64,000 nt of DNA from an uncultured Opitutales bacterium. GTDB taxonomy: Bacteria > Verrucomicrobiota > Verrucomicrobiia > Opitutales > Intestinicryptomonadaceae. The stretch is taken from NCBI GenBank assembly GCA_900545705.1, contig URAK01000008.1, positions 72,096 through 136,095 of the forward strand. The letters are read 5' to 3'. The notes beneath the pieces were generated by a model. That model saw nothing but the letters and a program-made list of their open reading frames with translations. It made no database searches and was not told the DNA's origin. Of the stretch, positions 12,491-58,744 are shown one piece after another. The first letter of the stretch is position 1, and each line of letters opens with the position of its first letter. Position numbers and translations under genes: made by a program.

Positions 12491-12520
12491 GCAAAAAAAA
12501 GTGCCCGAATTGTCGGGCAC
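12491..12520 (-). terminator. rho-independent terminator after the secretin gene
   Basis: Perfect 8-bp stem gtgcccga/tcgggcac with loop att. On the minus strand a T8 run follows it. Confidence 0.65.
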
Positions 12521-12543
12521 TTCAAAGATTCTTTTATACCAGA

Positions 12544-15342: not shown

Positions 15343-15412
15343 ATTCGCTGTATTTATAATTTGTTAAATGGACGTTAACACTTTTTGGGGTTTTTTAAAG
15401 AATTATTTTCAA

Positions 15413-16279: not shown

Positions 16280-16294
16280 TTCTGTGCCGCTTCT

Positions 16295-17398
16295 TTATTG
16301 TTTCTTTGGTTTTGTGGCCGACTTTGCCTTCGCGGCTACACCTTTTTTATCGGCGTCCTTTTTATCTCCAGGCTTTGCCGTATCTTTGACCACTTCTACG
16401 TATTCTATCACCACAGTGAATTCCGATATGTTGTCCGTAACAACGGGAACTTTATTTTCGTCTATCACCGGCGCGGCAGGCGTTTCCCCGCCCTCTTCGG
16501 AATCTGTCGATGCAAATGCGTCCGCCGCATCAGATGTCTCCTCTGCAAGGGCTTCCTCCGGGTTCGCCATCATTATTAGCGACGTATCAGCAGGCTTTAC
16601 ATCAATGCTCCTAACTACAAGCATTGCATCGAAATCCTTCAACTGGTTTAGGAACCTGCGGAGCACGTCAGTATGCCCGGTAAACACAAACCTGTATGCC
16701 AGGGTATCCAAGCTGCCAGGCTTGCGCGCAGTTATATTCTCGTCAATCTTAAAGTTGTCGCCCCTCAACGCCGCAGACGACTTTGAACGGGCAGACGCCC
16801 TTACGCGACGCGTCTTTGTTTCCTCTTTTATCCCTTCCTCAGGCAGTATCTCGCGCTGCACGTTCAATATCGCCATAGGGGATTCTTTCGATTTGCAATT
16901 AAAAAGCTTCTGATTGATGTAGTCCAACACGCAAACCTGCTTCCATATTGCGGGCATCGCCTCGTCTTTCGGTGAGTCGGCTGTCGGCGCTACATACTTT
17001 TTATATCCAAAATCCATTTCGTCGGGCACATATATTTCGCGCTTTTTTGCCTCGGCACGCCAAGAGTTTACCATTCCGCGCAACTGCTCGCGCAACTGGA
17101 ATCCCTCTTCGGCCGTAAGCGGCTTGAATATATGCTCGCTCTCGCGAGTCAAGTCCTTTTCCAAGTCGGAAAGATGCTTTTCAAGCTCCTTTATGTTTTT
17201 CGCAGAGGCGTCTATAGACGGCTGGGTCGGATCTGTTGCAAGTACGTCGTCGTACTGCCTCATCGCGCTGTTCAGCTTCCCAAGCGCCGCTGCATCGTTC
17301 TTATAAAGCATTGCGTCATATGCAGCGCCGGCTATAAACAGCGCTATCAATACGAACATTGCTATAAAAAATATAGGGTATTTCTTAAAGTATTTCAT
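16295..17398 (-). CDS. bitopic inner-membrane protein, candidate PilO/GspM-like, with a Lys/Ala-rich C-terminal tail
   Basis: 367 aa. N-terminal TM helix, a coiled-coil segment, a periplasmic domain, and the tail KPGDKKDADKKGVAAKAKSATKPKKQ. Confidence 0.4.
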   Translation of the reverse strand: MKYFKKYPIFFIAMFVLIALFIAGAAYDAMLYKNDAAALGKLNSAMRQYDDVLATDPTQPSIDASAKNIKELEKHLSDLEKDLTRESEHIFKPLTAEEGFQLREQLRGMVNSWRAEAKKREIYVPDEMDFGYKKYVAPTADSPKDEAMPAIWKQVCVLDYINQKLFNCKSKESPMAILNVQREILPEEGIKEETKTRRVRASARSKSSAALRGDNFKIDENITARKPGSLDTLAYRFVFTGHTDVLRRFLNQLKDFDAMLVVRSIDVKPADTSLIMMANPEEALAEETSDAADAFASTDSEEGGETPAAPVIDENKVPVVTDNISEFTVVIEYVEVVKDTAKPGDKKDADKKGVAAKAKSATKPKKQ

Positions 17399-17417
17399 CA
17401 GACAAATTCTTTGACCG

Positions 17418-19052: not shown

Positions 19053-19212
19053 TTCTGAATGTGAACGGGGGTAAAATAAAAATTCGGAATGAAAATAAAT
19101 CTAATACCTTTTCAGCCGCTTAGTAAAGCATTTTTTGCATTTACTTCGCACAAATTGCATCGCGCGCATGCAACGCACTCTACAGCACATTGTTGCGCGC
19201 TATGCCTCGGCC

Positions 19213-19890
19213 CTATTTTGTAGTAATGTAATTCGGCACTATCGGCGATTTCCCATATTCGTACAGCTTTACGTTGAACGGACACTCCGGCAAAGACATC
19301 AATACTCCGTCGTTTACCTTCGCTGATTTCTCTATCAATTTCATGAACGAATCGTATACCGCTTTCGGATCATCGTTCTTATAAATGTTTCTCGAAAGCA
19401 TCGTTTTCATATTTTGCTTCGTCAATTCTATCGGGTTCCCGTTTATGGATACCTCTATCTTCCATGCAAACGGATCCGCCGCAAGCCTGTATATCTCGTA
19501 CGCTTCGGAAGGTATATAGAACACTACTGGCGTCTTCTTGTTTATTTCCAAGGCAAACAATTTCGCCTTTGAACGCAACACAATAAGGCTGTCAAGCGAA
19601 CGCTTGTCGGTCGCCATTTGGTCTTTATACACCAGTACCAAATCAACGTCTACATTGCGAATCCACTTCTGGTTGTTCGCTTTATTGTCGGGGTTTTCCT
19701 TCGCAAACAACGGAATCTCTATGCGAGTCCACTGCCCGCTTGAACTCGGTACTGCACCGGGCTGCAGACGCTTCGCGTCGAGCTTAGAATGTTGGATTAT
19801 TATGGGGTCTTCTTTTGAAGGAGCAGCAAAGGCTGCCGCTGCAAAAGCTAATGCGACAAAAGAGAGTAATACGTGTTTCATGGACTTCAT
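19213..19890 (-). CDS. secreted hypothetical protein, first gene of the pil-like cluster
   Basis: 225 aa with a signal peptide (MKSMKHVLLSFVALAFAAAAFA). No recognisable domain. Confidence 0.45.
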   Translation of the reverse strand: MKSMKHVLLSFVALAFAAAAFAAPSKEDPIIIQHSKLDAKRLQPGAVPSSSGQWTRIEIPLFAKENPDNKANNQKWIRNVDVDLVLVYKDQMATDKRSLDSLIVLRSKAKLFALEINKKTPVVFYIPSEAYEIYRLAADPFAWKIEVSINGNPIELTKQNMKTMLSRNIYKNDDPKAVYDSFMKLIEKSAKVNDGVLMSLPECPFNVKLYEYGKSPIVPNYITTK

Positions 19891-40335: not shown

Positions 40336-41433
40336 CTATTTTCTGCGGCGAACAACTACCGCCGCAAACGCAAGAAGCCCCAATGCCGCCGCTACCATAG
40401 ACGGTTCGGGAACAACCGTAAGTATCAGGTTTTGGCCGTCCCAAGCTATATCGTAGTTGACTCCGTATGCGTCCAAGATGTCGGTACGCAAATCAAAGTC
40501 TTCAAGAGAGCCCGCATCGGCAAATCCTTCCGACCACTCGTCCGCCCAAAATATCTTATATTCTCCTGCCGATAAATTATCCGCATTCAAAATTCCAAAA
40601 TCAACGGTTATAACTTCCGTGTCGTTTTTCTTTGTCGTACCAAACGAATATATTGCAGTTCCGTCGGTCTTTAACTTGCCGACGTTCAGCGTCATCTTCA
40701 GGTCGCCCTTTGTGTTTGTCATAACGGTAGATGCAAAGTCGGTGCTATACGCATACATATTGACGCTTATATCGAGCACATCCCGTATGTTCAATGTATC
40801 AGCACTAATGCTGTCTATAAAACCATCATACGCCCCTAAATCTAAATTTACCCCGCCTTGTTGGGGTGGAGTAATAGTTATAGTTCCTCCAACATTTATA
40901 TTTACGCTTCCAGCGGTTGTCTTTTTTAAATACATGTGCGCTATCTGAGACAATGTCAGACTGCTAAGATTTAAGTCTATATTTTCGGCATCTTCAAATT
41001 GAATTGTCATAATATTATTTATGCGCGCATTCATTGCGCCCGCCGTAAAACTTTCCGTAAATTTAAATACAGTCGACTCGGTGACTGTCGTTCCAAATGA
41101 GACAGACCCGTCGGATTGCAACTCGCCCATTACCCACCGCTTTAACAGCACTGTTGACGAAGATGTTATCTGCTGAGACTGGTCGGCTCCTATCGCACCG
41201 CTTGCGTATTTTCCCTTGTCAGTAGGTATTCTGTCGTCGGTTCCAACAGGAAACACCCTAAAATTCCAGTCGTCGCCGCCACTGTCGTAAGTGGATAAGT
41301 ACGTCCATTGGCTTCTGTCGCTCAAATTCGCGGGATTTCCCGTTCCCATGAACAAAAAAGCGTCTGCACCGTAAATTGCAAAAGGCGAAATGAAAAGACT
41401 GAGAAGGGTAAATATATGTAATCTCGTTTTCAT
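40336..41433 (-). CDS. PEP-CTERM (exosortase-sorted) secreted protein
   Basis: The likely start is the internal ATG that gives MKTRLHIFTLLSLFISPFAIYGADA (a signal peptide). The C-terminus is PEPSMVAAALGLLAFAAVVVRRRK, which is a PEP motif, a TM helix and a basic tail. Confidence 0.7.
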   Translation of the reverse strand: MKTRLHIFTLLSLFISPFAIYGADAFLFMGTGNPANLSDRSQWTYLSTYDSGGDDWNFRVFPVGTDDRIPTDKGKYASGAIGADQSQQITSSSTVLLKRWVMGELQSDGSVSFGTTVTESTVFKFTESFTAGAMNARINNIMTIQFEDAENIDLNLSSLTLSQIAHMYLKKTTAGSVNINVGGTITITPPQQGGVNLDLGAYDGFIDSISADTLNIRDVLDISVNMYAYSTDFASTVMTNTKGDLKMTLNVGKLKTDGTAIYSFGTTKKNDTEVITVDFGILNADNLSAGEYKIFWADEWSEGFADAGSLEDFDLRTDILDAYGVNYDIAWDGQNLILTVVPEPSMVAAALGLLAFAAVVVRRRK

Positions 41434-41636
41434 AAAATTTATTCTAGATGTTTTTTCTAATTTTGCAATAAATTTCTCAATATATAGCACTAAAAAAATT
41501 TAAGCCAATTCAAAGGGGTTAACTTGCCTATTTTAAAAATCTTAAAAAAGAAAAAAACACCATGTTCACAAACGCCAAACAGCGCCCCTAAACCGCATAA
41601 AAAATACCCAAACTACAATAAAAAAACCGCCGCCGC

Positions 41637-44899: not shown

Positions 44900-45652
44900 T
44901 CAAAGAACCATAATAATAGTGCCCACAACAGTGGAGAGCACAACAAGCGCGCGGAAGAATTTTTCTGGAACAATATTTACGAGGCGCACCCCAAGAATTG
45001 CCCCAATAAATATGAAAGGTATGCCGCACGCCCCCGCCTTCAAAGCCAGCACGCCTATATTGTCCCACGCAAAGACTTGCAGCGGTATCTTCATATAGTT
45101 TACGAGCAGGAAGAACCATGCGGAAGTTCCCACAAACGAGCGTTTCGGCAGGCCCGCCGAAAGCAGATAGACCGACATCACAGGGCCGGCGGCATTGCCT
45201 ATCATTGTCGTAAACCCGCCAAGTATCCCAAACAATACTGCGCATTTTCCGGATTTTGCGATTTTCTGCGCGCGCTCCCCGCGCGCCGCAAACATCGTAA
45301 TAAGGCCAATAAAAATGCAGGAAGCCATCAGTACTCCGAACCCGCGCCCCGAAACAAAAGAGTCTGCGACAAGAGCCGCGAAAAACCCGACGACCGCACT
45401 CGGAAGGAGCTTTAAGACGAGCCGCCAGTCGGCGTCGCGCCTATAATATGCCACTGCTATCAAGTCGGCAAAGCAAAGCATCGGCAGAATAACACCCGTG
45501 GACTCCTTCGCACCGAATGCCAAGGCCATCATCGGAATAGAGACTACAACCGCCCCTTGTATTCCAGTTTTGGAAAACCCTATAAGAAGCGCGCAAAATG
45601 CAAGCGCCGCAAATTGCCAGTCCGACGAAAATATTCCGTTGTAAAATTCCAT
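44900..45652 (-). CDS. TauE/SafE-family (sulfite-exporter-like) membrane permease
   Basis: 250 aa polytopic membrane protein with the 4+4 TM repeat architecture and the Gly-rich helices typical of the family. Confidence 0.75.
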   Translation of the reverse strand: MEFYNGIFSSDWQFAALAFCALLIGFSKTGIQGAVVVSIPMMALAFGAKESTGVILPMLCFADLIAVAYYRRDADWRLVLKLLPSAVVGFFAALVADSFVSGRGFGVLMASCIFIGLITMFAARGERAQKIAKSGKCAVLFGILGGFTTMIGNAAGPVMSVYLLSAGLPKRSFVGTSAWFFLLVNYMKIPLQVFAWDNIGVLALKAGACGIPFIFIGAILGVRLVNIVPEKFFRALVVLSTVVGTIIMVL

Positions 45653-45811: not shown

Positions 45812-46762
45812 ATGAAAAGAAGAGAATTTATTGTAAAGACCGCATTGGGCACGGCGGCGGCCACGCTGCCTTTTTCAAGAGAACTTTTCGCCGAAGCTAA
45901 AAACGATCCCCAAAAACCCCTCGACATCGCCGCGATATTCGGCGGAACGGCCGCTGAAATGTTCGAGCGCGGAATCGCCGAAATGGGCGGCATGGGGCGT
46001 TTCGTGAAAAAGGGCGACTCTGTCGTCATCAAGCCAAACATCGGCTGGGACCAACCGCCGGAAGTCGGCGCCAACACGGACCCTGACCTCGTGGGGCTCG
46101 TCGTAAAAAAGTGCTTCGAGGCAGGCGCAAAAGAAGTATTGTGCTTCGACCACACTTGCGGCAACGACTGGCAAAATAGATATAAGATCAGCGGCATCGC
46201 GGAAAAAGTCGAATCAAACGGCGGAAAAATGGTCGCCGGCAACGACGAATTTATGTTTGTCGACCACGACATTCCACGCGGAAAATCGCTAAAGCACGCA
46301 AAAGTACACAAGCTTACCGTTAATCCAGATGTTTTTATAAACATTCCTGTCCTGAAACACCACGGCGGCGCGAAAATCACTTGCGCTCTCAAAAACTACA
46401 TGGGCTGCATTTTCGACAGGCAATGGTGGCACCGCAACAATATGCCGCAGTGCATCGCCGACTACTCCACATACCAAAAAACCACACTCACAATCGTTGA
46501 CGCCTACCGCGTTATGCTCGAGCACGGCCCACGCGGGAAATCGCCGAAGTTTGCGCCCGTCTCCAAGTACCAGATAATATCCACAGACATCGTCGCGGCG
46601 GACACGGCGGCAGTCCAGATTTTCGCCTCCATCGCGAAACGGCACGGAATGGGAAAGCCTTACGCACTCGACGAAATTAAGTACATCGCGCTCGCCGAAG
46701 AGCTTGGCGTCGGCACAACCGACCTCTCCAAGCTCAACATGAAGAGAATCTCCGTGGCGTAG
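45812..46762 (+). CDS. DUF362-family protein with a twin-arginine signal peptide
   Basis: 316 aa. TAT motif (MKRREFIVKTALGTAAATLPFS) and a DUF362-like core (VVIKPNIGW ... VLKHHGGAKITCALKNYMGC). Confidence 0.65.
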   Translation: MKRREFIVKTALGTAAATLPFSRELFAEAKNDPQKPLDIAAIFGGTAAEMFERGIAEMGGMGRFVKKGDSVVIKPNIGWDQPPEVGANTDPDLVGLVVKKCFEAGAKEVLCFDHTCGNDWQNRYKISGIAEKVESNGGKMVAGNDEFMFVDHDIPRGKSLKHAKVHKLTVNPDVFINIPVLKHHGGAKITCALKNYMGCIFDRQWWHRNNMPQCIADYSTYQKTTLTIVDAYRVMLEHGPRGKSPKFAPVSKYQIISTDIVAADTAAVQIFASIAKRHGMGKPYALDEIKYIALAEELGVGTTDLSKLNMKRISVA

Positions 46763-46840: not shown

Positions 46841-48739
46841 ATGAAAACATTTAAATTTCTGAAAGCGGCGAGAGTTGTCGTCGCGCTATTGTTGTTCTGC
46901 CTTATAAGCGCGCAATTCCTCGATGTGTACCACAGCCTCGGGAAGACGTATTGGGCGGCGAACCCGACGTCGCTTATGTATGCGCCGTCGCTTTTAAAGG
47001 CCCTGTCGGGGGCGGGGCTTGCAGCGGGCTGGGCGTTTATTGCATTCTCTCTCGCGGCGTTCGCGTTCGGGAGGGCATACTGCTCTTTCGCATGCCCGTT
47101 CGGGATTTTAATGGATATTTTGAGAAGAATCTCGGTGTATCCTGCAAAATCGCGCCTCCTAAAAAACACGGCGATTGGGAAGTTCTGCAAAAAGACTTTC
47201 GCCGCGCTTAAATACTCTCCGGCTGTCCCGTTTGCAAGGTGGATATTCCTCGCGCTGTCTGTGGCGGCCGTCGCATTCGGATACGGGGCGCTCTTCGGAT
47301 TTGTAGAGCCGTATTCTCTCTATGGGAAAATTATGGGGGGCATCGTCCACCCGGCGGCGAGCGTGGCAGTCGACGAAAGCGGAAGGCTGCTTGCAAACTT
47401 CGGCGTATATTCCATTCCTCCTGTCGGGGGAGATCCGACAGTCGCCCTCGCTTCTTTTGCGGTGGCAATTATAATTCTCGTAGCGATTTGGGCGGCGAGC
47501 GCACTATCGGGCAGAATTTATTGCAACACAATCTGCCCGGTGGGGGCGCTTCTCGGGCTATTTTCAAAAGCGGCCGTTTTTAAGCTCTCAATCGACAAGT
47601 CTTCATGCGTGTCCTGCGGGTTGTGCGAGCGCAACTGCAAAAGCAAATGCATAGACTCAAAAGGCAAGACGCTCGACTTCTCCAGATGCGTTCTATGCTT
47701 TAACTGCGCCGCAAACTGCCCAAAGAAATCCATATCTTTTGAATTTATCGCATCTCATAAAGAAAAACCGTCCGCCGAAAACTGCGTTGCCCGCGCGGAA
47801 GGAATTCCTCACGAAAAAAGACTCAGTCTCCAAGAAGGAAAGGCCAAAGAAAACAGACTCAATCGCCAAGAAAGCAAGACCGCTGAAAACAGCGTTGCGA
47901 ACTACGCGCCCACCGAAGGCAATCCCGGCAAAAGCAGTTTTTCGCCCACCGAAAACGAATCCGCAAAAAAAGACTTTAAAATGCCGAGGCGCTCATTCGC
48001 CGCCGGCCTGCTGCCGCTCGGCGCAATCCTCTGCTCCGCCGCAAAAAACGATTCCGCCGCGGGCAAAAATTCGGCGGCATCAAAAGACAATATCTCGCCA
48101 TATTCGCTCGACCCGTCGGATCCGCGAAGCAGAATGCCGTCTCCGCCCGGCTCGGTAAGCGTCGAGAATTTTCTTGAAAACTGCACGGGTTGCCAGATTT
48201 GCACTGCGGCATGCAAGGCGCATATCTTAAAGCCTTCCACAGGCCAATGGGGTCTCTCGGGATTTATGCGCCCGTATATGGACTATCTCGAAGGCTTTTG
48301 CCTCCACGCATGCAGAAGCTGCTCCGACGCCTGCCCAACTGGCGCGATTAAATTCATAACCGAGGAACAAAAGCGCTTTGAGAAAATTGGAACAGCAATT
48401 TTTAAGGAAGACCTGTGCGTCGTAAAAACCGACGGAACCGACTGTGCAGCATGCGCCGAGCACTGCCCTGTCCAGGCAATAGAAATGATTCCGTTCGGAG
48501 ATCCTAAAAATAGCCTCTACATTCCGCATGTGCACGAAGACGTCTGCATAGGCTGCGGCGCATGCGAATATATATGCCCCGTGCTGCCTAAAAAGGCAAT
48601 CGTCGTAAGGGGGCTTGCCGTGCACACGCGCGCAACGCCGTTCGATGAATCAATGCGCATATACAAACCGGAGCAGGAAGAAAAGAAGCCGACTAAAAAT
48701 GCGGTTCCTGTCGATACCCAAAACCCCTTCCCGTTTTAA
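46841..48739 (+). CDS. membrane-anchored polyferredoxin, NapH/MauN-like N-terminus plus multiple 4Fe-4S domains
   Basis: 632 aa. TM segments carry CSFACPFG and CNTICPVG motifs. At least six CxxCxxCxxxCP ferredoxin motifs. A low-complexity linker of about 140 aa, with imperfect duplications at DNA level (47760-47960), separates the ferredoxin domains. Confidence 0.8.
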   Translation: MKTFKFLKAARVVVALLLFCLISAQFLDVYHSLGKTYWAANPTSLMYAPSLLKALSGAGLAAGWAFIAFSLAAFAFGRAYCSFACPFGILMDILRRISVYPAKSRLLKNTAIGKFCKKTFAALKYSPAVPFARWIFLALSVAAVAFGYGALFGFVEPYSLYGKIMGGIVHPAASVAVDESGRLLANFGVYSIPPVGGDPTVALASFAVAIIILVAIWAASALSGRIYCNTICPVGALLGLFSKAAVFKLSIDKSSCVSCGLCERNCKSKCIDSKGKTLDFSRCVLCFNCAANCPKKSISFEFIASHKEKPSAENCVARAEGIPHEKRLSLQEGKAKENRLNRQESKTAENSVANYAPTEGNPGKSSFSPTENESAKKDFKMPRRSFAAGLLPLGAILCSAAKNDSAAGKNSAASKDNISPYSLDPSDPRSRMPSPPGSVSVENFLENCTGCQICTAACKAHILKPSTGQWGLSGFMRPYMDYLEGFCLHACRSCSDACPTGAIKFITEEQKRFEKIGTAIFKEDLCVVKTDGTDCAACAEHCPVQAIEMIPFGDPKNSLYIPHVHEDVCIGCGACEYICPVLPKKAIVVRGLAVHTRATPFDESMRIYKPEQEEKKPTKNAVPVDTQNPFPF

Positions 48740-48765
48740 CTCTAAAAAAGGCAGATACCGCCGCG

Positions 48766-48802
48766 AAAAAAAAGACGCCCAATTTGAGGCGTCTTTTTTT
48801 TC
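48766..48802. terminator. bidirectional rho-independent terminator between the polyferredoxin and EamA genes
   Basis: An A8 run, then stem aagacgcc/ggcgtctt with loop caatttga, then a T8 run. Confidence 0.7.
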
Positions 48803-48904
48803 GCGCAATTTACTTGCGGAATACTGGAGGCTCTCAGTTTTACTAAGGCATTTTTTAGCGCGCTATTATTTCAAAACGCCCGCCGTTATTGTTGAAATCC
48901 AAAA

Positions 48905-49846
48905 CTATTTTGCCGCAACAAGCGCGTGCCCTCCTGCGGACACGGGAGAATCGGAGGGCGGCGAAATGGGTATTTGCGCAAAGAATATAAGCGCACCTAT
49001 CGACAATAACATCGCCGCAAGCCACCGCGAATCAACTTTGTCGGGAACCCCCAAGAGTTTGTCGGCAAGCATTATCCATAGCGGAGCGGTAAGCGAAAGC
49101 GCACTTAGATATGCCGGATTCGGAACGTACAGCGCCGAAAGATTTCCGAAAAATATCGTAGCCGAACTCACTGCCGACATTAAAATTCCCGCAGTTATTA
49201 TCCGTTTTGACGACAATGCGCCAATCAATTTTGCCCCGCCGCCGTGCACCGCAAATACGGTCAAGTTTATCGCGCCGCTTAAAAATATTGCGCATAGCGG
49301 ATAATAAACCGCCGCGCTTTCAAAAGCCACAGCCTCCATTGCCTCCTTGCGAACTATCATCATTACGGCGAGCACTAACACAGCAGGCGTAAGAAAAGCA
49401 AGCTGGCTCCTCATTGCGCCCCCGCCGCTGTTCATCTTATAAAAGCTCAGGCAAATCGCGGCCATGGAAACTGCCAAACCCGCAAAAACAACAGGGGCTC
49501 CCTCAAGCTCAAAAAATCTTTTTGGCATTATAATCCATCACATTACAACGCCGATTGGGACGGCAAGCATGCTTATTCTCGATGTAGTTCCGGCGCCAAA
49601 CCTTGCGGCGGAAGCGTAAAGGCGCGAGTTGAAAAAGGACGACAACATTCCCTCAAATACAATCAGCGCCCAGAATTCAGGCGATTTCGGGAACGGCACA
49701 AAAAATGCGGCGGGGCTATATATCGCAGCAACCCCGACGCCCCTTAGCCCAGACATCAAAACGCCCTCTATTTTGTATTTTTGGCTTACGAGCATTGTTC
49801 CGGCGTTGAACACCGCAAATAATATCCCTGCCGCAAGCCATAGCAT
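48905..49846 (-). pseudogene. EamA/DMT-family transporter gene interrupted by one in-frame TGA
   Basis: ORFs 49538..49846 and 48905..49528 share one frame and are separated by TGA plus 3 codons (..PIGVVM*WIIMPKRFF..). Joined length is about 312 codons, normal for a 10-TM EamA protein. TGA is an ordinary stop elsewhere in the window (larE, the methyltransferase). Confidence 0.6.
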
Positions 49847-49946: not shown

Positions 49947-50624
49947 CTATTCAAAAAACAGCGCCAGCGCACACAGCAGAATTACAGCCCCCGCGATTGC
50001 ATGCCCCCACCTTCGCAAAAAGAAAGTGTCGCTCTTTATAAAATTCAAGCCGAGCGAAACCGCCGATACGCAGGCGAGCATCGCCGCCAAAGTAGATGCC
50101 GAAAATGCCGCCACCACGGCGCAAACGCCCTCCCAGTTTCCATCAGAAGCCGGAACCATCACAAGGGGCGCGAGTATTTCGCACGGGCCAAGCGTAAAAA
50201 TCAAAAACAATGTCCAAAAGTTCGCCTTGTCCGACAACCCGCCGATTTTTTTTGCGCCCGAATCGGCTTCGCAGCAATGCATTCTCCCCCGCCCCGATAT
50301 CGAAACGCGCAATCCGAGAAAAAAGTACACTATTGCAAACGCAAGAAACGCCCATTTCATTATGTCCTCGCGCGCAGCGTCGAGAAGAGAAGCCTCCCCC
50401 ACACCCGCACCAAATGCGATTCCCAAGCCCCCAACCAAGGCTGATGAAAGCAAATGCCCCATGCCGCAGGCAGCCGCAAACGCAAGAATCTTCGGAAGGC
50501 CCCACCCGTGCGACTTTCCAATCGCGACAAACGGCAGGTAGTGCGCCGGATTCGCCGCCGTATGCACCGCACCAAACGCCGCCGCAGTCGCCGCCAAAGC
50601 CAATATTCCGCCGCTATCTTCCAT
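49947..50624 (-). CDS. polytopic membrane protein with CcdA/DsbD_2-like Cys motifs and a His/Cys cluster, candidate metal (Ni/Co) transporter
   Basis: 225 aa, about 6 TM helices. GPCEILAPL motif in a TM helix, an MHCCEADSG loop, and several His in helices. Stop/start overlap with larB suggests co-transcription. Confidence 0.4.
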   Translation of the reverse strand: MEDSGGILALAATAAAFGAVHTAANPAHYLPFVAIGKSHGWGLPKILAFAAACGMGHLLSSALVGGLGIAFGAGVGEASLLDAAREDIMKWAFLAFAIVYFFLGLRVSISGRGRMHCCEADSGAKKIGGLSDKANFWTLFLIFTLGPCEILAPLVMVPASDGNWEGVCAVVAAFSASTLAAMLACVSAVSLGLNFIKSDTFFLRRWGHAIAGAVILLCALALFFE

Positions 50625-50625
50625 A

Positions 50626-51372
50626 TCACAACCTGTTTGCCAAGTGCGCGCAATAACCCGCGCCGAAACCGTTGTCTATGTTCACAACACTTACTCCATT
50701 CGCGCAAGAGTTTATCATCGACAGCAACGCGGAAATTCCGCCAAAACTTGCCCCGTATCCGACACTCGTCGGAACGGCAAAAACGGGAACTGAAACAAGG
50801 CCCGCCAAGACGCTTGCAAGCGCGCCCTCCATGCCGGCAACTGCCACTATTGCGCTGCATTTGCGTATTTCTTCAAGCCTGTCGGCAAGCCTGTGTATCC
50901 CAGCCACACCGCAATCGTAAAACGCCTTTGCGGGGCTTCCCAGAAATTCGGCTGTCACGCGGGCCTCCTCCGCGACGGGCATGTCGCTCGTGCCGGCGCT
51001 AACTACCGCGATTTCCCCGCGCACGCGCGGTTTAGGAGAATCGGAATTTATCCATGCCGCACCCGCTATCCCGCAATATTTCGCGCGCGGAAATTCGCGC
51101 AAAAAAGCCTCTGCCGACTCTGGAGAAAGACGCGTCGCCAAAACTCCGCTACCCCGCTCGACCATCGCCCTGGCTATATCTATAATCTGCGGCGGAGTCT
51201 TTCCCGCGCCGTAAATGACCTCCCCCGCACCGCACCGGCGCTCCCTCGCCGCGTCTATCGACGTGTGCGACAGCTTTATTATCGACATTGAATCTATCAG
51301 CCTCTCGGCCTCCGCCTCGCCTATTTCTCCGTTCTTGTACGAGCGCAAAATTTCTTTCAAACCGTCTTTCAT
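50626..51372 (-). CDS. larB: nickel-pincer nucleotide biosynthesis carboxylase/hydrolase LarB (PurE-like)
   Basis: 248 aa. PurE-like core (EIAVVSAGTSDMPVAEEA, AIVAVAGMEGALASVLAG) with the roughly 70-aa N-terminal extension typical of LarB. Confidence 0.8.
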   Translation of the reverse strand: MKDGLKEILRSYKNGEIGEAEAERLIDSMSIIKLSHTSIDAARERRCGAGEVIYGAGKTPPQIIDIARAMVERGSGVLATRLSPESAEAFLREFPRAKYCGIAGAAWINSDSPKPRVRGEIAVVSAGTSDMPVAEEARVTAEFLGSPAKAFYDCGVAGIHRLADRLEEIRKCSAIVAVAGMEGALASVLAGLVSVPVFAVPTSVGYGASFGGISALLSMINSCANGVSVVNIDNGFGAGYCAHLANRL

Positions 51373-52166
51373 ACGTTCATGCTTCCGCTTTCATAGCCTC
51401 TCAAATCTACACACGCGCGCGCGAATCCCGCGCCCTCGACAAACTCCGCAATCTTCGGCGCGAGGAAAGCCGCATTCGCATAAAACCTGCCCAAGTCCGC
51501 CGCGCCGAGCTCCACGCGCCCGACCTTGCCGTGAACCCTCACCCTTACCTGCGAGAACCCAAGCGAACGCACGCGCCTTTCAGCCTCGTCCACCCTTTTT
51601 AAATCCGTCTCTCCTATCTCTACACCCGTCTCGAAGCGCGTCATTAGACACGCCCCGGACGGCGCGAACTCGACGGGCATTCCCGCATTTTTTGCGTATT
51701 CCCTCACATCCGCCTTCGTCCACCCTGATTCCAACAGGGGGCTGCGAATTTTCAATTCCTTCAACGCCCTCATTCCGGGGCGGTAGTCCGACAAATCGTC
51801 TGTATTTGTGCCGTCGCACAAGACTCCGAGAGATTCTTCGGCGCATATTTTTAGAAATTCTGAAAACATTGCCCTCTTGCACAAATAGCATCTTTCGGGC
51901 GGGTTATTCCTTATCTCTTCTGGAATCCTGCCGTTTCTGACAACTTTGCGGCGCACTCCCAAATAGCGGCAGATTTTTTCGGAATTGTCCGTCTCTGAGG
52001 CGGGCATTTGCGGGGTATCGGCAGTAATGGCGGCGCAATTTTCGGCCCCTAAAACGGAGGCGCAAAAATGCAGCAACACCGCGCTGTCAAGCCCGCCTGA
52101 AAGGGCTACGGCAGCCCTGCCCAACCCGCGCAGATTCTCACTCAGCGCCTTTTCCTTCAAATTCAT
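51369..52166 (-). CDS. larE: nickel-pincer nucleotide biosynthesis sulfur transferase LarE (PP-loop ATP pyrophosphatase)
   Basis: 265 aa. PP-loop SGGLDSAV, a CYLCKR pair, and a conserved Cys in APSGACLMTRF. Overlaps larB by 4 nt and larC by 29 nt. Confidence 0.8.
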   Translation of the reverse strand: MNLKEKALSENLRGLGRAAVALSGGLDSAVLLHFCASVLGAENCAAITADTPQMPASETDNSEKICRYLGVRRKVVRNGRIPEEIRNNPPERCYLCKRAMFSEFLKICAEESLGVLCDGTNTDDLSDYRPGMRALKELKIRSPLLESGWTKADVREYAKNAGMPVEFAPSGACLMTRFETGVEIGETDLKRVDEAERRVRSLGFSQVRVRVHGKVGRVELGAADLGRFYANAAFLAPKIAEFVEGAGFARACVDLRGYESGSMNV

Positions 52167-53712
52167 CTAATATCTTTCTCGACAATTTTCCAAAAGGCAT
52201 TCGCGTTTTCGCCGAAATTTTTGCAATATCGTCGGCCTCCGCCTTCGACTTTCTTATTCCGCCGAAGCGCGCGGTCTTAACGCGCACTTTGCCGAACGAC
52301 GACTCAAACACAGTTTCCTCGCGCGGAAGGCTGTCCCGACGTACTCGCATTCGCCTGACTCCTAGCGTTCCAGACCTCTCAAAAAAAGCCGCCGCAACCC
52401 TGTCTTCGGCCCCAGTCGGGCACAATGCGCACACTTTTACGCCCACCCTGCACTTCTTCATTGCAATTGGCTCTTGCCATGCGTCCACGGCGCCTTCGCC
52501 AAAGAGCGACTGCGCAAATTCGGCAAGCTCCTCGGCGCTCATATCGTCGATATTCGCCTCCACAAGCGCCATCTCTTCGGTGAGCGTCAGGGGCTCTTGG
52601 CTCGTTTCGTAAACCATAACCCTAAGCACATTCGCAATTCCGGGAACGTCGCGGCCGCCTATCCCGACGCCGACAGACGAAATTTTACCCGAGAGCTTCG
52701 GCTCGTACGCATCGCACATTGAAGCTATAATCGCAGCGCCTGTCGGAGTTGTCGCCTCATGCGCGGCGCCCCCGACCTTTGACGGGAAAGACTTTGCAAG
52801 CTCCGCCGTCGCGGGGGCTGGAACCGGCATCACCCCGTGCGCGCATCTCACCGTGCCCGAACCAAGCTCAACCGCCGAAGACACTATTCTGTCAACCCCC
52901 AGCAGCTCAAAGCATACGGCTGCCCCTACTATATCGACTATCGAGTCAACCGCGCCGACCTCGTGGAAATGAACATTTTCGATTTCAACCCCGTGCACTT
53001 TGGCCTCCGCCTCGGCGAGCGCCCTAAAAATTTTCATGGAGTCGCGCTTGACCCTTTCGGACAATCCAGAATTTTCTATTATTTTGGCAATTTCCCCGAA
53101 TGTTCTATGTGAATGGCGGTGCGCTACCGCCCCGCCGTGCGCCGTTTCATCGAGGTTGTTGTGCGCGCGAGCTTCGGCTGAAGTTTTAATTTTCCCGCTT
53201 TCTTTTATAGAGTGCCCATTATTGGAGGTGCAATATGCTAAATTTTCCGCAGAATGTTCGTGAGTATTGTGGGCATGTTCGTGGGCATGGCGAGAATGTT
53301 CGCAAATATTGTGGGAGTGCGCGTGGGCGTCGTTGAAATGTACATGGGTATCGTGGGAATGTTCGTGCTGAAAGTGCCCGTTAGTATCGTGGAAATGCTC
53401 GTGGGCGTGGCGAGAATGTTCGTGGGTATCGTGGGAATGGTTGTGGTCGTAGTGCGAATGTTCACAGCCTTCCGAATGCGTGTGGCCAAAGTCTTCCGCG
53501 CCTTCGCATTCGCAGTTGTCGAGCGCGACATGTACGCGGGTTCCAAATATGCCAAGCCTGCTCTCGCGCGATATCTCAAGCCTCCAGCCTCCGACCCCCA
53601 ATGTTTGCAGCCGCCTTTCAAGTTCTGCCGCATCGGCCCCGGCGTCCACAAGCGCGCCGAGATTCATATCCCCGCTTATGCCCGCAAAACAGTCGTAATA
53701 TAAAGTCTTCAT
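52138..53712 (-). CDS. larC: nickel insertion protein LarC (DUF111) with an expanded His-rich insert
   Basis: Start taken at the internal MKTLYYDCFAGISGDMNLGALVDAG (the LarC N-terminal motif); the track ORF extends to 53790. About 100 aa of H-x-H repeats (HTHSEGCEHSHYDHNHSHDTHEHSRHAHEHFHD...HAHEHAHNTHEHS). C-terminal LarC2-like CTP-binding domain. Confidence 0.8.
   Translation of the reverse strand: MKTLYYDCFAGISGDMNLGALVDAGADAAELERRLQTLGVGGWRLEISRESRLGIFGTRVHVALDNCECEGAEDFGHTHSEGCEHSHYDHNHSHDTHEHSRHAHEHFHDTNGHFQHEHSHDTHVHFNDAHAHSHNICEHSRHAHEHAHNTHEHSAENLAYCTSNNGHSIKESGKIKTSAEARAHNNLDETAHGGAVAHRHSHRTFGEIAKIIENSGLSERVKRDSMKIFRALAEAEAKVHGVEIENVHFHEVGAVDSIVDIVGAAVCFELLGVDRIVSSAVELGSGTVRCAHGVMPVPAPATAELAKSFPSKVGGAAHEATTPTGAAIIASMCDAYEPKLSGKISSVGVGIGGRDVPGIANVLRVMVYETSQEPLTLTEEMALVEANIDDMSAEELAEFAQSLFGEGAVDAWQEPIAMKKCRVGVKVCALCPTGAEDRVAAAFFERSGTLGVRRMRVRRDSLPREETVFESSFGKVRVKTARFGGIRKSKAEADDIAKISAKTRMPFGKLSRKILDEFEGKGAE
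53190..53510. repeat. imperfect tandem DNA repeats encoding the LarC His-rich region
   Basis: Recurring gtgggcatgttcgtg / gtgggtatcgtgggaatgttcgtg-type units, read directly from the sequence. Confidence 0.7.
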
Positions 53713-53910
53713 ATATTTTTCGCGCCATTTTAATTCCAAAAAATAGCGCGTCAAGCCGTTTAGGCGCGCAAAAAATGGCAAAAAAAACACCTTTTTAACT
53801 TTCTCAGAAATTTGACTTATCGTTCATAAAACGAAAACAATTGAACTGTTAAAAATAAAAATGGCTTTTTACTTATTGATTTTTAAGCAAACAAATAATA
53901 ATTCCCAAGT

Positions 53911-56226
53911 ATGTTTAGGAAATTATTATACATATCTTCTCTTTTGGCGTTTTCGGCTCTTGCGGCGCGCGCCATAACGGTCGTTTCGGAGGACGCGTCT
54001 ATACCAAAGCACTATGTTCCGCCGGTTGTCGGCAACGGCTCTATATGCACGAGCATCGACTTTGAAGGCGAACAATTCCAGAAAAAATACCGCTCGTACT
54101 ATCCCGAAGTAGTCTGGGCTGGCAGAAGGTATTCGCGCACAGACAACTATTCAGCCCTCATCACTATGGGGCACTATAAGACTTCGATTACCGTCGGCGG
54201 CAAGCCCCTCGGGAAGCCTCTCTCGTGGGAGCAAGAGCTCGACCGCGAAAACGCACTAATCGAGTGCACTGTTAAATATGCAGAGGCTACCGTAAAAACT
54301 ACCGTATTCGTGCCGATGGGTCTCGATATGCTCGCCGTAAAAAAAGTGGTTGAGCCAAACGACAAGTCCGCAAAAGTCGACGTAAAATTCACATACTTTC
54401 TCACCGACGCGGACTCTGTTAAAAATCCGCCGCGAATGGTAATCGAAAAACCCGAAAAGCTGGAATCCCCCGAGCGCGCCTCCATCAGATACACAGCATA
54501 CGGATTGAAAGTCTACCGCGGGCAAATCCAAATCCTGCCTTCCAAGCCCTCAACTTTCGAGGCCGGCAAGAATTATGCCTCATTCTCAACTTCATTCGAC
54601 AAATCCCCCGCAGAAATATCGTACGTCGCCCTATATGCCGACAACTATAATACGGATATTGCGGGAGATATCGAGCGCCTCGCAAATAAAATAACAAAAA
54701 GCGGCGGCGAAAAGGTAAAATACTCTGACGTCGTAAAGCTCTCGAACACTGCCCGCCAAGACGAATTCCCCGAATCCGTGCGCGACGAACGCTCCGCAAA
54801 ACTCTTGGAAGCCGCCAAAGCAGGCTTCGGAGGGCTGCTCGAAAACCATAAGAAGGAATGGAAAAAATTCTACGAAGAAGGCTCGAAAGTCTCAATCCCC
54901 GACAAGGCAATATCCGACGTATACCTCACATCTCTCTACCACATGAAAACCGTCGCCACAAGGTGGTCGTTCCCGGTGACAATATTCGGGCACGGCGCGG
55001 GCTGGTCTGGCAGATACTTCGGCTGGGACGAATTCTACACTTCGGTCGGGGCAATGTCGGCGGGTAAATTCGACCTCTCCGAACGCCCGTGCGTATTCCG
55101 CAGAAAACTCCTCGCTCCCGCCATAATGAGGGTTTCATACTACCGCGCCCCGACTTTCAACAAAATAGGCGCAAGATACGTATGGGAAACAAACGAAGAC
55201 GGCTCCGAAGGCACAACCGACGGACTCTGGCTCGACCACGTCTTCCATATGTCAACAATCTCGGCCACGGGCTGGAAGCAATATCTATATACAGGCGATA
55301 AAAAATTCCTCAAAGAAACAGCCTACCCCGTAATGAAAGAGTGCGCCCTATTCCTGCTCTCGCACATGGTTTACAACAACGGCGGCAGGATAACCATAGG
55401 CAAATGCACCGACATCGAACGCCTCGGCCCGGCAGTGGAAAACGCATTCCTAACCTCGTGCGGCGCAATATACTCATTCGAAACCGCAGCAAAGGCCGCC
55501 GACATTCTCGGAATCGATGCCGAAACCGCAAAAACTTTTAGGGAAACAGCCGCCGGATTGCGCAAAACGCTTCCGCAAAACGACGAAATGTATATACCGT
55601 TCGAAGGCTGCAAAGAAAAAAGCATTGTGACAATATGCGGATATTTTCCATTCCCTGTGCTCTCTTTGGACGATCCCAAGGGGATAGCCGCCGTACGCGA
55701 CTTCTTCAAAAACATATATTCTGCAGGAAATATGGTTCCCGTCGGAAAATCGGTTTGCTCTTGGTACGCAAGCTGGCTTAGCTCCTCATTCTCATGCATT
55801 GGAGACGCAAAGAATGCGTACGATACCGCAATTCTCTCCATGTCGGGCGTCGGCCTTTTCAAAGAGCCGTGGGAAATCCTTGAAACCGGAAACAATCCGT
55901 GGTTCGTTTCGTCGGCAGGCAACTTCATTTACGCTTTCAACAACCTGCTATTGCACCAAAACGAGAAAGGCGAAATGAAAGTAGCATGGGCGGCTCCGGA
56001 AAGCTGGAAAGATTTCTCATTCACTCTGCCGGCGTACGGCGGAGGGAAAGTCGACGTTTCGGTCAAAGACGGCAAATTCTCCAAGCTCGACTACAAATCG
56101 GCCGACGGCGCCCAAAAGACAATCATTTTCCCCAAGCGCCTCGTTCCCGAAAATAAAATCGACAAATCGTGGGAAAGCGACGGGGATTTCTACCGTGTAA
56201 AAGTTTCGGGGGATTTTTCCATATAA
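53911..56226 (+). CDS. secreted putative (alpha/alpha)6 six-hairpin glycoside hydrolase
   Basis: 771 aa with a signal peptide (MFRKLLYISSLLAFSALAARA). An N-terminal beta-sandwich followed by a large helical catalytic-like domain. The family was not resolved. Confidence 0.4.
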   Translation: MFRKLLYISSLLAFSALAARAITVVSEDASIPKHYVPPVVGNGSICTSIDFEGEQFQKKYRSYYPEVVWAGRRYSRTDNYSALITMGHYKTSITVGGKPLGKPLSWEQELDRENALIECTVKYAEATVKTTVFVPMGLDMLAVKKVVEPNDKSAKVDVKFTYFLTDADSVKNPPRMVIEKPEKLESPERASIRYTAYGLKVYRGQIQILPSKPSTFEAGKNYASFSTSFDKSPAEISYVALYADNYNTDIAGDIERLANKITKSGGEKVKYSDVVKLSNTARQDEFPESVRDERSAKLLEAAKAGFGGLLENHKKEWKKFYEEGSKVSIPDKAISDVYLTSLYHMKTVATRWSFPVTIFGHGAGWSGRYFGWDEFYTSVGAMSAGKFDLSERPCVFRRKLLAPAIMRVSYYRAPTFNKIGARYVWETNEDGSEGTTDGLWLDHVFHMSTISATGWKQYLYTGDKKFLKETAYPVMKECALFLLSHMVYNNGGRITIGKCTDIERLGPAVENAFLTSCGAIYSFETAAKAADILGIDAETAKTFRETAAGLRKTLPQNDEMYIPFEGCKEKSIVTICGYFPFPVLSLDDPKGIAAVRDFFKNIYSAGNMVPVGKSVCSWYASWLSSSFSCIGDAKNAYDTAILSMSGVGLFKEPWEILETGNNPWFVSSAGNFIYAFNNLLLHQNEKGEMKVAWAAPESWKDFSFTLPAYGGGKVDVSVKDGKFSKLDYKSADGAQKTIIFPKRLVPENKIDKSWESDGDFYRVKVSGDFSI

Positions 56227-56927: not shown

Positions 56928-57842
56928 ATGAAAAATATTTTTAGAAATATAGCCGCACTCCTTGCAATAACAGCCGCCGCGCTCGCATACGCCGACGCCG
57001 ACAATGTAATAAGGGAAACCATTCCCGTTTGGCCGGAAGGCAAAATGCCGGGCGCCGACGCCGACAAAATCACAGACAAGAACGGGAAAATACCGGAAAT
57101 AAAAGAACTGCCGAGACTTGAAGTATTCCTCCCGCAGACGCATAGGAAAACGGGCTTTATGATAATCTGCCCCGGCGGAGCGTACATGGGGCTTGCAAGC
57201 AATCATGAGGGCACGCAAATCGCCAACTGGATTTCGGACGAAGATATTCCGTGCGCAATCCTTTTCTACCGCGTTCCGAACAAACCCCAAGCCGCACTTA
57301 TGGACATACAGCGCGCAATAAGAATAGTCCGCTCAAACGCACAGAAATGGAATATTGACCCAAATAAAATAGGCATAATGGGCTTTTCCGCCGGAGCCAA
57401 CCTATGCGCCCGCGCCTCAACCCAGTTCGACAAAAAAACCTACGAACCAATAGACGCAATAGATACCCTTTCCACCCGCCCCGACTTCACGGGTCTCGTC
57501 TACCCCGCCTATTGCGACAAGCCCGGCAACGACTTGCGCTGGTCCGGCAAACCCTTGCGCGACGCCGACTACAATTCAACTTACGCCATTGCGGAAAACT
57601 TGAATGTCACAAAAGACACCCCACCCGCGTTTATTGTCCAGACGCAGGACGACTTCTACGCAAACGCGGCAATCGCCTATTATCTGGCACTCAAAAAGAA
57701 CAAAGTTCCCGCAAACCTGCACATGTTCGATAAAGGCGGCCACGGCTACGGCTTGAATAATAAGGCCGACCTCGTATCAGAATGGAAAGATTTGTACGAA
57801 GAATGGCTAGAACACAACAATTTTGACGGAAAAAGAAGATGA
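56928..57842 (+). CDS. secreted alpha/beta-hydrolase esterase (acetyl esterase/lipase-like), paralog 1
   Basis: 304 aa with a signal peptide. GxSxG nucleophile elbow (MGFSAGA) and the HGYG motif. Confidence 0.75.
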   Translation: MKNIFRNIAALLAITAAALAYADADNVIRETIPVWPEGKMPGADADKITDKNGKIPEIKELPRLEVFLPQTHRKTGFMIICPGGAYMGLASNHEGTQIANWISDEDIPCAILFYRVPNKPQAALMDIQRAIRIVRSNAQKWNIDPNKIGIMGFSAGANLCARASTQFDKKTYEPIDAIDTLSTRPDFTGLVYPAYCDKPGNDLRWSGKPLRDADYNSTYAIAENLNVTKDTPPAFIVQTQDDFYANAAIAYYLALKKNKVPANLHMFDKGGHGYGLNNKADLVSEWKDLYEEWLEHNNFDGKRR

Positions 57843-58744
57843 AAAAATTATTGATTGCCCTCTCCGCATTCGCCGCGGCATCGCTATGTCTCGCCTCCGA
57901 AAAATTCGATCTATGGCCGGAAGGCAAAATGCCGGGCAAATCTGCCGCCGAGCCGGAATCGTCTAAAATTGAGGATACTTGGATTGGCAAGAAAGACAAA
58001 GTGCTAATCATACGCAATGTCTCCAAGCCTACTGTGGAATTTTTCAAGGCAAAGTCCGACAAGCCCACCGGACTGGTTGTAGTCTGCCCCGGCGGCGGAT
58101 ACGGAGTAATCGCATACGGGCACGAAGGCACGGAAATCGCCGAATGGCTGAACTCGCAGGGAGTGTCGGCGCTCGTGCTAAAATACCGCGTCCCGAATAA
58201 TCCTATGGGCGCGCTTATGGACGCCCAAAGGGCTATCAGGACGGCGCGCGCAAACGCAAAAGAATGGAATGTAGACCCAAATAAAATCGCCGTTATGGGC
58301 TTCTCAGCAGGGGCAAGCCTGTCAGCAAGGGCGTCGACAAACTACGAAAAAAAATTATACCAGCCAATAGACAATATAGACGGGCTGTCCGCGCGCCCCG
58401 ACGGAACTATCTTGATTTATCCCGCATATTGCGACGAACCCGGCAACGAAAAGCGGTGGAAAAACTCAAAGAACCCCGGGCACGACTACAACGGAATGTA
58501 CAGGCTCGCCGGCGAATTGCCCGTCACAAAGGACACCCCTCCGGCATTTATCGTGCAAACGCTTGACGACGGTCTCGTCAACTCTGCAATATCCTATTTT
58601 CTCGCACTAAAGGAACTGAAAGTCCCCGCGAGTGTCCATATATTCCAAAGCGGCGGACACGGCTACGCCCTCCGCAAACTCGACAAGCCCGTCGACGAGT
58701 GGAAAGACTTGCTCGCAACTTGGCTTAAAGCGTACAATTATTAA
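57839..58744 (+). CDS. secreted alpha/beta-hydrolase esterase, paralog 2 (tandem duplicate)
   Basis: 301 aa. Shares WPEGKMPG, CPGGGY, MGFSAGAS, TPPAFIVQT and GGHGY blocks with paralog 1. A 4-nt ATGA overlap joins the two genes. Confidence 0.75.
   Translation: MKKLLIALSAFAAASLCLASEKFDLWPEGKMPGKSAAEPESSKIEDTWIGKKDKVLIIRNVSKPTVEFFKAKSDKPTGLVVVCPGGGYGVIAYGHEGTEIAEWLNSQGVSALVLKYRVPNNPMGALMDAQRAIRTARANAKEWNVDPNKIAVMGFSAGASLSARASTNYEKKLYQPIDNIDGLSARPDGTILIYPAYCDEPGNEKRWKNSKNPGHDYNGMYRLAGELPVTKDTPPAFIVQTLDDGLVNSAISYFLALKELKVPASVHIFQSGGHGYALRKLDKPVDEWKDLLATWLKAYNY

Follow-up and report, generated by a model that had tools for sequence, protein, structure and literature searches.

A Tat-signal DUF362 protein of LarA-like fold as candidate client of a nickel-pincer nucleotide operon in an Opitutales bacterium

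When a bacterium carries the genes for nickel-pincer nucleotide (NPN) biosynthesis with no larA among them, for which enzyme is the cofactor made? This question is raised by 64,000 nucleotides of DNA from an uncultured Opitutales bacterium (GenBank assembly GCA_900545705.1, contig URAK01000008.1, forward-strand positions 72,096 to 136,095), referred to in their full length as the window and numbered from their first letter. The window contains a larC-larE-larB operon and, converging on it from the opposite strand, an operon for a DUF362 protein and a membrane polyferredoxin. Its closest genome matches are an uncultured bin (87%) and Opitutales metagenome-assembled genomes (MAGs; 64–76%). By one count, 12 nickel enzymes are known (PMC13524815). 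Genomes that have larBCE without larA amount to approximately 15% (PMC11796402), and the question of which enzymes use NPN there has been answered for two families only (PMC13524815). The explanation that we favor, with slightly better than even confidence, is that the lar operon makes NPN, a DsbD_2-like permease supplies the nickel, and the DUF362 protein, which has a LarA-like predicted fold and a signal for twin-arginine translocation (Tat), is the client, acting in the periplasm as a net oxidoreductase together with the polyferredoxin.

The lar operon and the search for its client

Five tightly packed genes occupy the minus strand from 53712 to 48905. The first three, larC, larE and larB, make up what reads as a complete NPN biosynthesis operon. 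An earlier, sequence-only reading of this DNA had recognized the three genes from the letters and the translated open reading frames (ORFs), and all of them score above curated NCBIfam cut-offs. The overlaps that it gave also agree with the coordinates, at 29 nt between larC and larE (52138–52166) and 4 nt between larE and larB (51369–51372). A search of the window with Rfam returned one tRNA only, with no riboswitch or other RNA near the lar operon.

The larC gene (52138–53712, minus strand) encodes a predicted CTP-dependent nickel insertase (cyclometallase) of 524 aa, in which LarC1 and LarC2 are fused and which carries a long His-rich insert. It matches Pfam Ni_insertion (PF01969; 3.3e-129, 431.7 bits) and the NCBIfam models for LarC1 (TIGR00299; 214.8 bits, cut-off 90) and LarC2 (NF052512; 116.6 bits, cut-off 50). 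The mechanically called ORF begins at GTG 53790. We prefer ATG 53712 as the start, because a promoter-like element (TTGACG-16-TAAAAT, 53754–53727) lies shortly 5′ of it and because the Ni_insertion model begins at residue 4 of the protein that starts there. Much of the His-rich insert (approximately residues 65–200, ~135 residues) stems from a degenerate tandem repeat of 42 nt, found by Tandem Repeats Finder at 53251–53463 (minus strand) in 5.2 copies. The insert is unusually long, and 33 histidines were counted across residues 85–230. LarC has 510 residues in sister strains and 524 here, a difference of exactly one 14-residue repeat unit. In two assemblies the gene caller had split larC at the repeat region and placed a spurious ORF on the plus strand within it.

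The product of larE (51369–52166, minus strand; TIGR00268, 258.2 bits, cut-off 150) is a predicted ATP-dependent sulfur insertase, with a PP-loop motif, SGGLDS, at residue 23 and a cysteine triad composed of C93-x-x-C96 and C173. The CXXC-C triad of T. maritima LarE (C92/C95/C172) binds a [4Fe-4S] cluster (PMC9283937). The window LarE would be expected to bind such a cluster and, because its three cysteines match that triad, is probably catalytic and not sacrificial, despite the TIGR00268 product name.

The third gene, larB (50626–51372, minus strand), encodes a predicted nicotinic acid adenine dinucleotide (NaAD) carboxylase/hydrolase, with Pfam AIRC covering residues 121–242. The sequence-only reading had set beforehand what would undo the operon call, for example larB scoring as plain PurE. 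The gene scores 280.6 bits against NF033503 (cut-off 175) and only 34.8 bits against the purE model TIGR01162 (cut-off 149.6); it is therefore not plain PurE, and the operon call stands. LarB would make P2CMN from NaAD.

The window has LarB, LarE and LarC in common with the lar system of L. plantarum (larA-larB-larC-larD-larE plus the Ni transporter larQO/MN; Desguin et al. 2014/2015, summarized in PMC11770544 and PMC12611868). Both also have a His-rich LarC and a nickel-transporter gene in the cluster, that of the window being putative. Unlike L. plantarum, the window lacks a DUF2088 LarA, the LarD aquaglyceroporin and LarR, and its LarC is one fused polypeptide. Its LarE is of the CXXC-C [4Fe-4S] type by sequence, like that of T. 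maritima (PMC9283937), whereas L. plantarum has a single-Cys sacrificial LarE, and a single DsbD_2/NicO-like permease stands in place of the L. plantarum CbiMNQO-type energy-coupling factor (ECF) transporter.

Among selected window ORFs of at least 90 aa, no Pfam match was obtained to Lar_N (PF09861) or LarA_C (PF21113), the domains of DUF2088, nor to aldo-keto reductase (AKR; PF00248) or ornithine cyclodeaminase. A hidden Markov model (HMM) built from three LarA sequences likewise found no match in the six-frame window ORFs of at least 80 aa, so that the Pfam scans and the LarA HMM together bear out the statement that DUF2088/LarA is absent from the 64 kb. The further statement that LarA is the only known NPN-dependent family is outdated, since two more have been described: NphT, an AKR, and an ornithine cyclodeaminase that depends on NPAD (PMC13524815).

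The sequence-only reading had presumed a client encoded elsewhere and had offered, as an alternative, that the neighborhood hints at a new one, by way of a DUF362 redox pair and a glycoside hydrolase. It had placed the DUF362 pair upstream; the pair is instead found past the 3′ end of the lar operon, in convergent orientation. A client encoded elsewhere is not the best-supported option. The evidence favors the DUF362 part of the hint, through a LarA-like fold and linkage to lar genes, and not the part concerning the hydrolase, which has no such link. The glycoside hydrolase (53911–56226) was rejected as a client: it stands beside the operon only within this species, with no lar link elsewhere.

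The DUF362 protein, LarA and the polyferredoxin partner

The DUF362 gene (45812–46762, plus strand, 316 aa) lies 3.2 kb from the lar operon, in the converging plus-strand operon. Its product scores 160.2 bits against PF04015 (gathering cut-off 24), with residues 71–268 covering profile positions 1–199 of 200. DUF362 and DUF2088 belong to the same Pfam clan, CL0471 (PMC11770544). LarA of L. plantarum, in a sequence checked to be 100% identical to 5HUQ, itself matches the DUF362 HMM PF04015 at E=5e-5, and the match covers LarA residues 83–246, which contain H108, H174, K184 and H200. The AlphaFold2 model of the window protein has a predicted local distance difference test (pLDDT) score of 91.4, and a Foldseek search of the PDB with this model returned LarA-family structures for 18 of 18 significant matches, with probability 1.0. 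As modeled, the DUF362 protein adopts the LarA fold, and we take it to be a distant homologue of LarA.

Direct profile comparisons were less telling. A DUF362 profile of 53 homologues gave no significant LarA match among PDB sequences, and hhalign comparisons of the 53-homologue and 135-sequence DUF362 alignments with three LarA structures were not significant. The same was true of our own DUF362 HMMs against LarA and of global pairwise alignment. Some of the non-significant alignments paired the DUF362 N-terminus with the LarA C-domain. The link to LarA therefore rests on the Pfam HMM match, the fold searches and a bridge sequence.

The bridge is a cytoplasmic DUF362 protein (170 bits on PF04015) encoded beside a lar operon on contig L094. 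It reads KGH138PMGGYGGALK148...AYIH164, which is the exact spacing of LarA (H+10=K, K+16=H), and it has a weak Lar_N match at exactly this stretch. It aligns in register to HFFAGFSGGRK of three LarAs and, by both HMM and MAFFT, to K182/H184/K194/G198/H207 of the window protein. From this we infer that window H184, K194 and H207 would be the counterparts of LarA catalytic H174, NPN-tethering K184 and Ni-ligand H200, respectively. The constant active site of LarA homologues consists of one catalytic His, a Ni-ligand His, an NPN-tethering Lys, a ribose Asp and a phosphate Arg/Lys (PMC12611868).

These positions are strongly conserved in DUF362 proteins. K74, N76, D113, K182, H184, K194, N195, G198, R203, H207, D217 and D230 are invariant in 53 close homologues. 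In a diverse alignment of 135 rows, composed of the window protein and 134 representatives (29–50% identity), K182, H184, K194, N195, G198, H207 and D230 are kept in 130–134 rows, with H184, K194 and H207 conserved at 97% or more. The cysteines are not conserved (45% and 34% in the same alignment), making a Cys-ligated cluster in DUF362 itself unlikely.

The N-terminus of the window protein, MKRREFIVKTALGTAAATL, begins MKRREFIVK, a twin-arginine motif, and continues into a hydrophobic stretch. The motif is widely kept across the 135 rows (R3 in 131, R4 in 118, F6 in 120), RRxF being present in ~90% of the 134 relatives, and DUF362 homologues give weak PF10518 matches. Because of the conserved RRxF motif, the protein is a predicted substrate of Tat, a route that exports proteins already folded, usually with cofactor.

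In comparison with the LarA superfamily, the DUF362 protein has neither a Lar_N nor a LarA_C match, it would be periplasmic by its Tat signal, and it is constantly paired with a membrane polyferredoxin. The constant pairing implies net electron transfer rather than a LarA-like internal hydride shuttle. NphT, an NPMN-dependent AKR (PMC13524815), is likewise a non-DUF2088 enzyme that lies beside larBCE clusters without larA and has a conserved tethering Lys and a His. In contrast to DUF362, NphT has a TIM-barrel fold that bears no relation to LarA, is cytoplasmic and has no Fe-S partner; the window encodes no AKR. DUF362 is not mentioned in the NphT paper (PMC13524815). Our literature search found a connection between Tat-DUF362-polyferredoxin and NPN biosynthesis only as a note on the clan, with DUF362 as an outgroup.

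The polyferredoxin (46841–48739, plus strand, 632 aa; Pfam Fer4 families) consists of a NapH-like half fused to a NapG-like half. The NapH-like half has five hydrophobic segments, CX3CP motifs and two CxxCxxCxxxC (Fe-S) motifs. An internal twin-arginine motif, PRRSFAAGLL, follows at residue 383 and precedes the NapG-like half. The internal RRxF with its hydrophobic stretch (residues 383–405 in the window protein) is kept in at least 64 of 89 polyferredoxin homologues, and in Opitutales genome L010 the protein is split into two genes, the second of which begins MNNSKKNRRTF, a Tat-like signal. The motif suggests an unusual topology, in which the N-terminal half would first undergo Sec-type insertion and the C-terminal Fe-S half would then be translocated by Tat.

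NapGH, the quinol dehydrogenase of periplasmic nitrate reductase, is the classical wiring of a periplasmic Tat-exported enzyme to the quinone pool. The window polyferredoxin follows the same plan, with a membrane part like NapH (CX3CP motifs, cytoplasmic clusters) and a Tat-dependent poly-[4Fe-4S] part like NapG. The window protein differs in that its halves are fused with an internal twin-arginine motif and that its partner is DUF362 instead of NapAB/NapC. Since it scores far below the NCBIfam cut-offs for NapG (61.5 bits, cut-off 269) and NapH (45.8 bits, cut-off 213), the likeness is a resemblance in working and not family membership. By this analogy, the polyferredoxin would be a quinol-linked electron conduit to a periplasmic enzyme.

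Linkage to lar genes and the rival explanations

With the DUF362 alignment as query, one genome was scanned per species; this yielded 80 species-level loci, spread over Bacteroidota, Verrucomicrobiota, Lentisphaerota, Ignavibacteriota, Spirochaetota, Desulfobacterota and Proteobacteria. The polyferredoxin gene lies directly 3′ of DUF362 in 79 of the 80, often with a 4-nt overlap. The DUF362 profile matches 9131 representative clusters, the carriers of Tat-DUF362 proteins include gut Bacteroidales, Opitutales, Victivallales, Ignavibacteria, Spirochaetota and Proteobacteria, and the exact window protein was found in 1624 blocks of the public assembly collection.

Genes of the lar pathway lie within 10 kb of the DUF362 module in 13 of the 80 loci, or in 8 of the 42 that have at least 5 kb of sequence on both sides. 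By chance alone, we estimate, well under 1% of genomes would have a 3-kb cluster this close (within 10 kb) to a given gene. The arrangement varies. In 10 loci larC is divergent, 260–680 bp from the DUF362 start; a Competibacteraceae genome (L058) has DUF362, polyferredoxin, larC, larE and larB on one strand, with a gap of 6 nt between polyferredoxin and larC; and an Opitutales MAG (L015) has the convergent arrangement seen in the window. Unsupervised clustering of neighbors over 85 loci placed LarC (15 of 85) and LarB (13) at the top after the module itself. The lar-adjacent loci come from 4 of 14 DUF362 clusters at 60% identity, and in one Bacteroidota cluster 10 of 11 members are lar-adjacent. 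The LarA HMM found no LarA in any of the DUF362 loci. As a yardstick for these figures, LarA itself, the proven client, stands next to LarB in only 2 of 80 arbitrary LarB loci from metagenomes.

In the window itself, the lar and DUF362-polyferredoxin operons converge on a bidirectional intrinsic-terminator hairpin (48762–48805; 18-pair stem with flanking T/A runs) and have no common promoter, so local adjacency alone is weak evidence. This convergence would suit another account, possible but in our view unlikely, in which the client is encoded elsewhere in the genome, as a DUF2088 LarA, an NphT-type AKR, an NPAD-type ornithine cyclodeaminase or a new family, and the DUF362 operon is a mere neighbor. 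Clusters of lar genes usually stand alone: in the same 80 arbitrary LarB loci, LarA is adjacent in only those 2, and no other family recurs there. The frequency of larBCE without larA (~15% of genomes; PMC11796402) and the existence of non-LarA clients (PMC13524815) point the same way. So do the other Opitutales-clade genomes, four of six of which have no lar gene in the available sequence of up to 10 kb past the polyferredoxin; in a fifth (L014) the sequence ends there. What a client elsewhere leaves unexplained is that lar genes are the top neighbors of DUF362, in 13 of 80 species, three arrangements and four clades, with one co-directional cluster, and that this particular neighbor has a predicted LarA fold with a conserved His/Lys/His triad. 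In addition, no alternative client, whether LarA, AKR or cyclodeaminase, was found within the 64 kb.

We consider it improbable that DUF362 is a LarA-fold enzyme without NPN, whose His, Lys and Asp hold another metal or cofactor (for example, at a carbamylated-lysine site) fed by the polyferredoxin. No better chance is given to the related proposals that the lar adjacency reflects common nickel/redox regulation or that DUF362 makes or modifies the cofactor instead of using it. In favor of such an account, DUF362 domains typically occur together with Fe-S domains (Pfam description; PMC5742341), and the protein lacks much of the LarA C-terminal domain. Against it, the triad repeats the three positions by which NPN binding and catalysis are defined in LarA homologues (PMC12611868), and the cysteines of DUF362 are not conserved. 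Most DUF362-module loci have no nearby lar genes, and the modules of Bacteroides and Parabacteroides are preceded instead by an ECF-S-like protein and a small phosphoribosyltransferase; where linkage occurs, however, it is to the NPN-specific larB and larC rather than to nickel genes at large. A WbqC-like gene accompanies larB as well as DUF362, which also speaks for this account; a Tat-exported protein, on the other hand, is unlikely as a cytoplasmic biosynthetic factor.

Several points also weigh directly against the DUF362 protein as the NPN client, beginning with the lack of a common promoter in the window. In approximately 80% of the DUF362-polyferredoxin loci, among them those of Parabacteroides faecis and Bacteroides nordii, lar genes are absent from the surrounding 10 kb. 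A search for LarB homologues, meant to reach isolates with the module, returned environmental Bacteroidales only. The protein is some 110–140 residues shorter than LarA, and the counterpart of LarA H108 (H114) is variable in DUF362. The equivalence of H184/K194/H207 comes from transitive alignment and spacing, in agreement with the Pfam coordinates, and not from superposition. One-electron Fe-S partners are no obvious fit for a hydride-transfer cofactor, and we know of no NPN enzyme outside the cytoplasm. On contig L094, two candidate NPN clients adjoin, and an AKR-ferredoxin fusion could be the client there. Finally, a LarA, an NphT-type AKR or another client may be present elsewhere in the genome.

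Other genes recur around these loci and are recorded here in their own right. In Bacteroidota, a WbqC-like gene (PF08889, 104.8 bits) lies directly 3′ of larB, with or without larE in the cluster (L012, 7215–7865; L071, 7079–7702; L072, L090, L021, L040, L049 and L063). It also occurs alone, divergent from DUF362, in three genomes (L029, L039 and L073). The WbqC-like protein may be an extra factor of the NPN cofactor system. In Bacteroides, Parabacteroides, Chitinophagaceae and related loci, two genes precede DUF362-polyferredoxin on the same strand, the first for a 170-aa ECF-S-component-like membrane protein (weak, E 0.0015) and the second for a 133-aa phosphoribosyltransferase (PF00156, 1.7e-13). 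None of these loci (L045, L050, L052, L053, L061, L066, L067, L069, L070, L082, L084 at 8465–9943, L088 and L091) has nearby lar genes, and it is pure speculation that the pair forms a salvage route for a pyridine precursor. The cluster on L094 (2116–13923) is co-directional and comprises a haloacid dehalogenase (HAD) hydrolase, the cytoplasmic DUF362, an AKR-4Fe-4S dicluster fusion and DUF3842, followed by larE, larB, larC1, larC2, a methyltransferase, NikB/C-like permeases and an SBP_bac_5 binding protein.

Accessory genes, mechanism and meaning

The gene 3′ of larB (49947–50624, minus strand) encodes a 225-aa membrane protein with six helices, a divergent DsbD_2/NicO-like putative Ni(II) permease. 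It was first described as metal-transporter-like and as overlapping larB by stop and start. The junction reads TGA-t-ATG instead, with a 1-nt spacer and no overlap. Most homologues match the DsbD_2 family, but the protein itself scores 20.4 bits against PF13386 (DsbD_2), below the gathering cut-off of 24.9. PF13386 is matched by 10 of 12 homologues (best 2.7e-8), and one homologue is named NicO nickel/cobalt transporter by the Joint Genome Institute (JGI). Distant homologues have a His-rich loop, and the motifs HT..P.HYLPF, CG.GH and GPCE are conserved. A homologue of the gene lies 3′ of larB in Opitutales genome L015 and on the unrelated metagenome contig L155. A fold search with the protein was unspecific, the model having a pLDDT of only 65.8. 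Given these relatives, a nickel permease is a sensible assignment. The L155 contig (2–2411) carries larC-larB and then a DsbD_2-family membrane protein that scores above the cut-off (26.6 bits), an independent instance of the pairing.

Orthologues of the putative permease carry 1-nt deletions in two other strains (L004, ~14760–14790; L001, ~14550–14560). The deletions (gene nt 29/30 and nt 217/218) leave it shortened or split, with larC, larE and larB intact; they could reflect relaxed selection or homopolymer assembly error.

The last gene of the series (48905–49846, minus strand) encodes a multi-pass membrane protein of no assigned family, with 313 aa when intact. Here it consists of two ORFs in the same frame (49538–49846 and 48905–49528), interrupted by an in-frame TGA at 49540–49538. 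In the near-identical strain L004 this codon is TGG (Trp-103) and the 313-aa protein is intact, so that the interruption corresponds to a single G>A change. An identical split allele is present in assembly L007, which makes the change a real strain variant and not a read error, and the gene is probably a pseudogene here. Recoding of the TGA, as selenocysteine or otherwise, was rejected, as TGA is the stop codon of larB itself and the sister strain has TGG at this position. The gene had been labeled an EamA transporter; neither half nor the intact 313-aa version matched EamA (PF00892) or another family in Pfam or NCBIfam, there was no PDB support, and the nonsense TGA splits the gene. In four related strains, an ORF of 142–154 aa replaces it. 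Given these deletions and replacements, as against larC, larE and larB, which stay intact across strains, both accessory membrane genes look dispensable.

On the other side of the DUF362 gene and divergent from it lies a gene for a TauE/SafE-family permease (44900–45652, minus strand; PF01925, 5.5e-24). It occupies the same position in five other Opitutales-clade genomes (L014–L017 and L019), not in Bacteroidota, and may be part of the module in Opitutales only.

Elsewhere in the window, 1.38 kb (11160–12543) contain no ORF of at least 70 aa on either strand and no Rfam match. This stretch lies 5′ of a secretin/pilus-like cluster (12544–19890), and GC is low (~0.42) in the 2-kb interval 10001–12000. 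Two adjoining paralogous genes for alpha/beta-hydrolase esterases (BD-FAE/Abhydrolase_3), overlapping by 4 nt and followed by a metallo-beta-lactamase-fold gene, occupy 56928–58744. A 384-aa protein (40336–41490) has no Pfam match and ends in a PEP-CTERM-like sorting signal (VPEPS...RRRK).

With the DUF362 protein as client, the locus would work as follows. The 225-aa DsbD_2/NicO-like protein, cotranscribed after larB, would import Ni(II), and LarB, LarE and LarC would make NPN. The DUF362 protein would be loaded with NPN in the cytoplasm and exported in its folded, loaded state via Tat. On the periplasmic side, the fused NapH/NapG-type polyferredoxin would pass electrons between it and the quinone pool, and the DUF362 protein would act as an NPN-dependent net oxidoreductase and not as a racemase. 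Its substrate can be guessed to be a sugar or a 2-hydroxy-acid-type compound. In gut lignocellulose metagenomes, DUF362 is found fused to CBM9 and dockerin (PMC5742341), a loose hint at carbohydrate-type substrates.

The lar operon itself is ordinary, and lar genes without larA were already known. What is new is a relative from the LarA clan with a new predicted location, a new partner and probably new chemistry. The locus nominates a concrete and widespread candidate, with a LarA-like fold and the key Lys and His, in another predicted cellular location and with an electron-transfer partner. We suggest tentatively, with somewhat less than even confidence, that Tat-exported DUF362 proteins may form a large unrecognized family of NPN enzymes, periplasmic oxidoreductases of respiratory type that a NapGH-like polyferredoxin connects to the quinone pool. 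If so, the cofactor would be taken out of the cytoplasm and would gain its first link to an Fe-S electron-transfer chain, and nickel-pincer chemistry would be extended from racemization and hydride shuttling to respiration-linked net redox catalysis, including in abundant gut bacteria.

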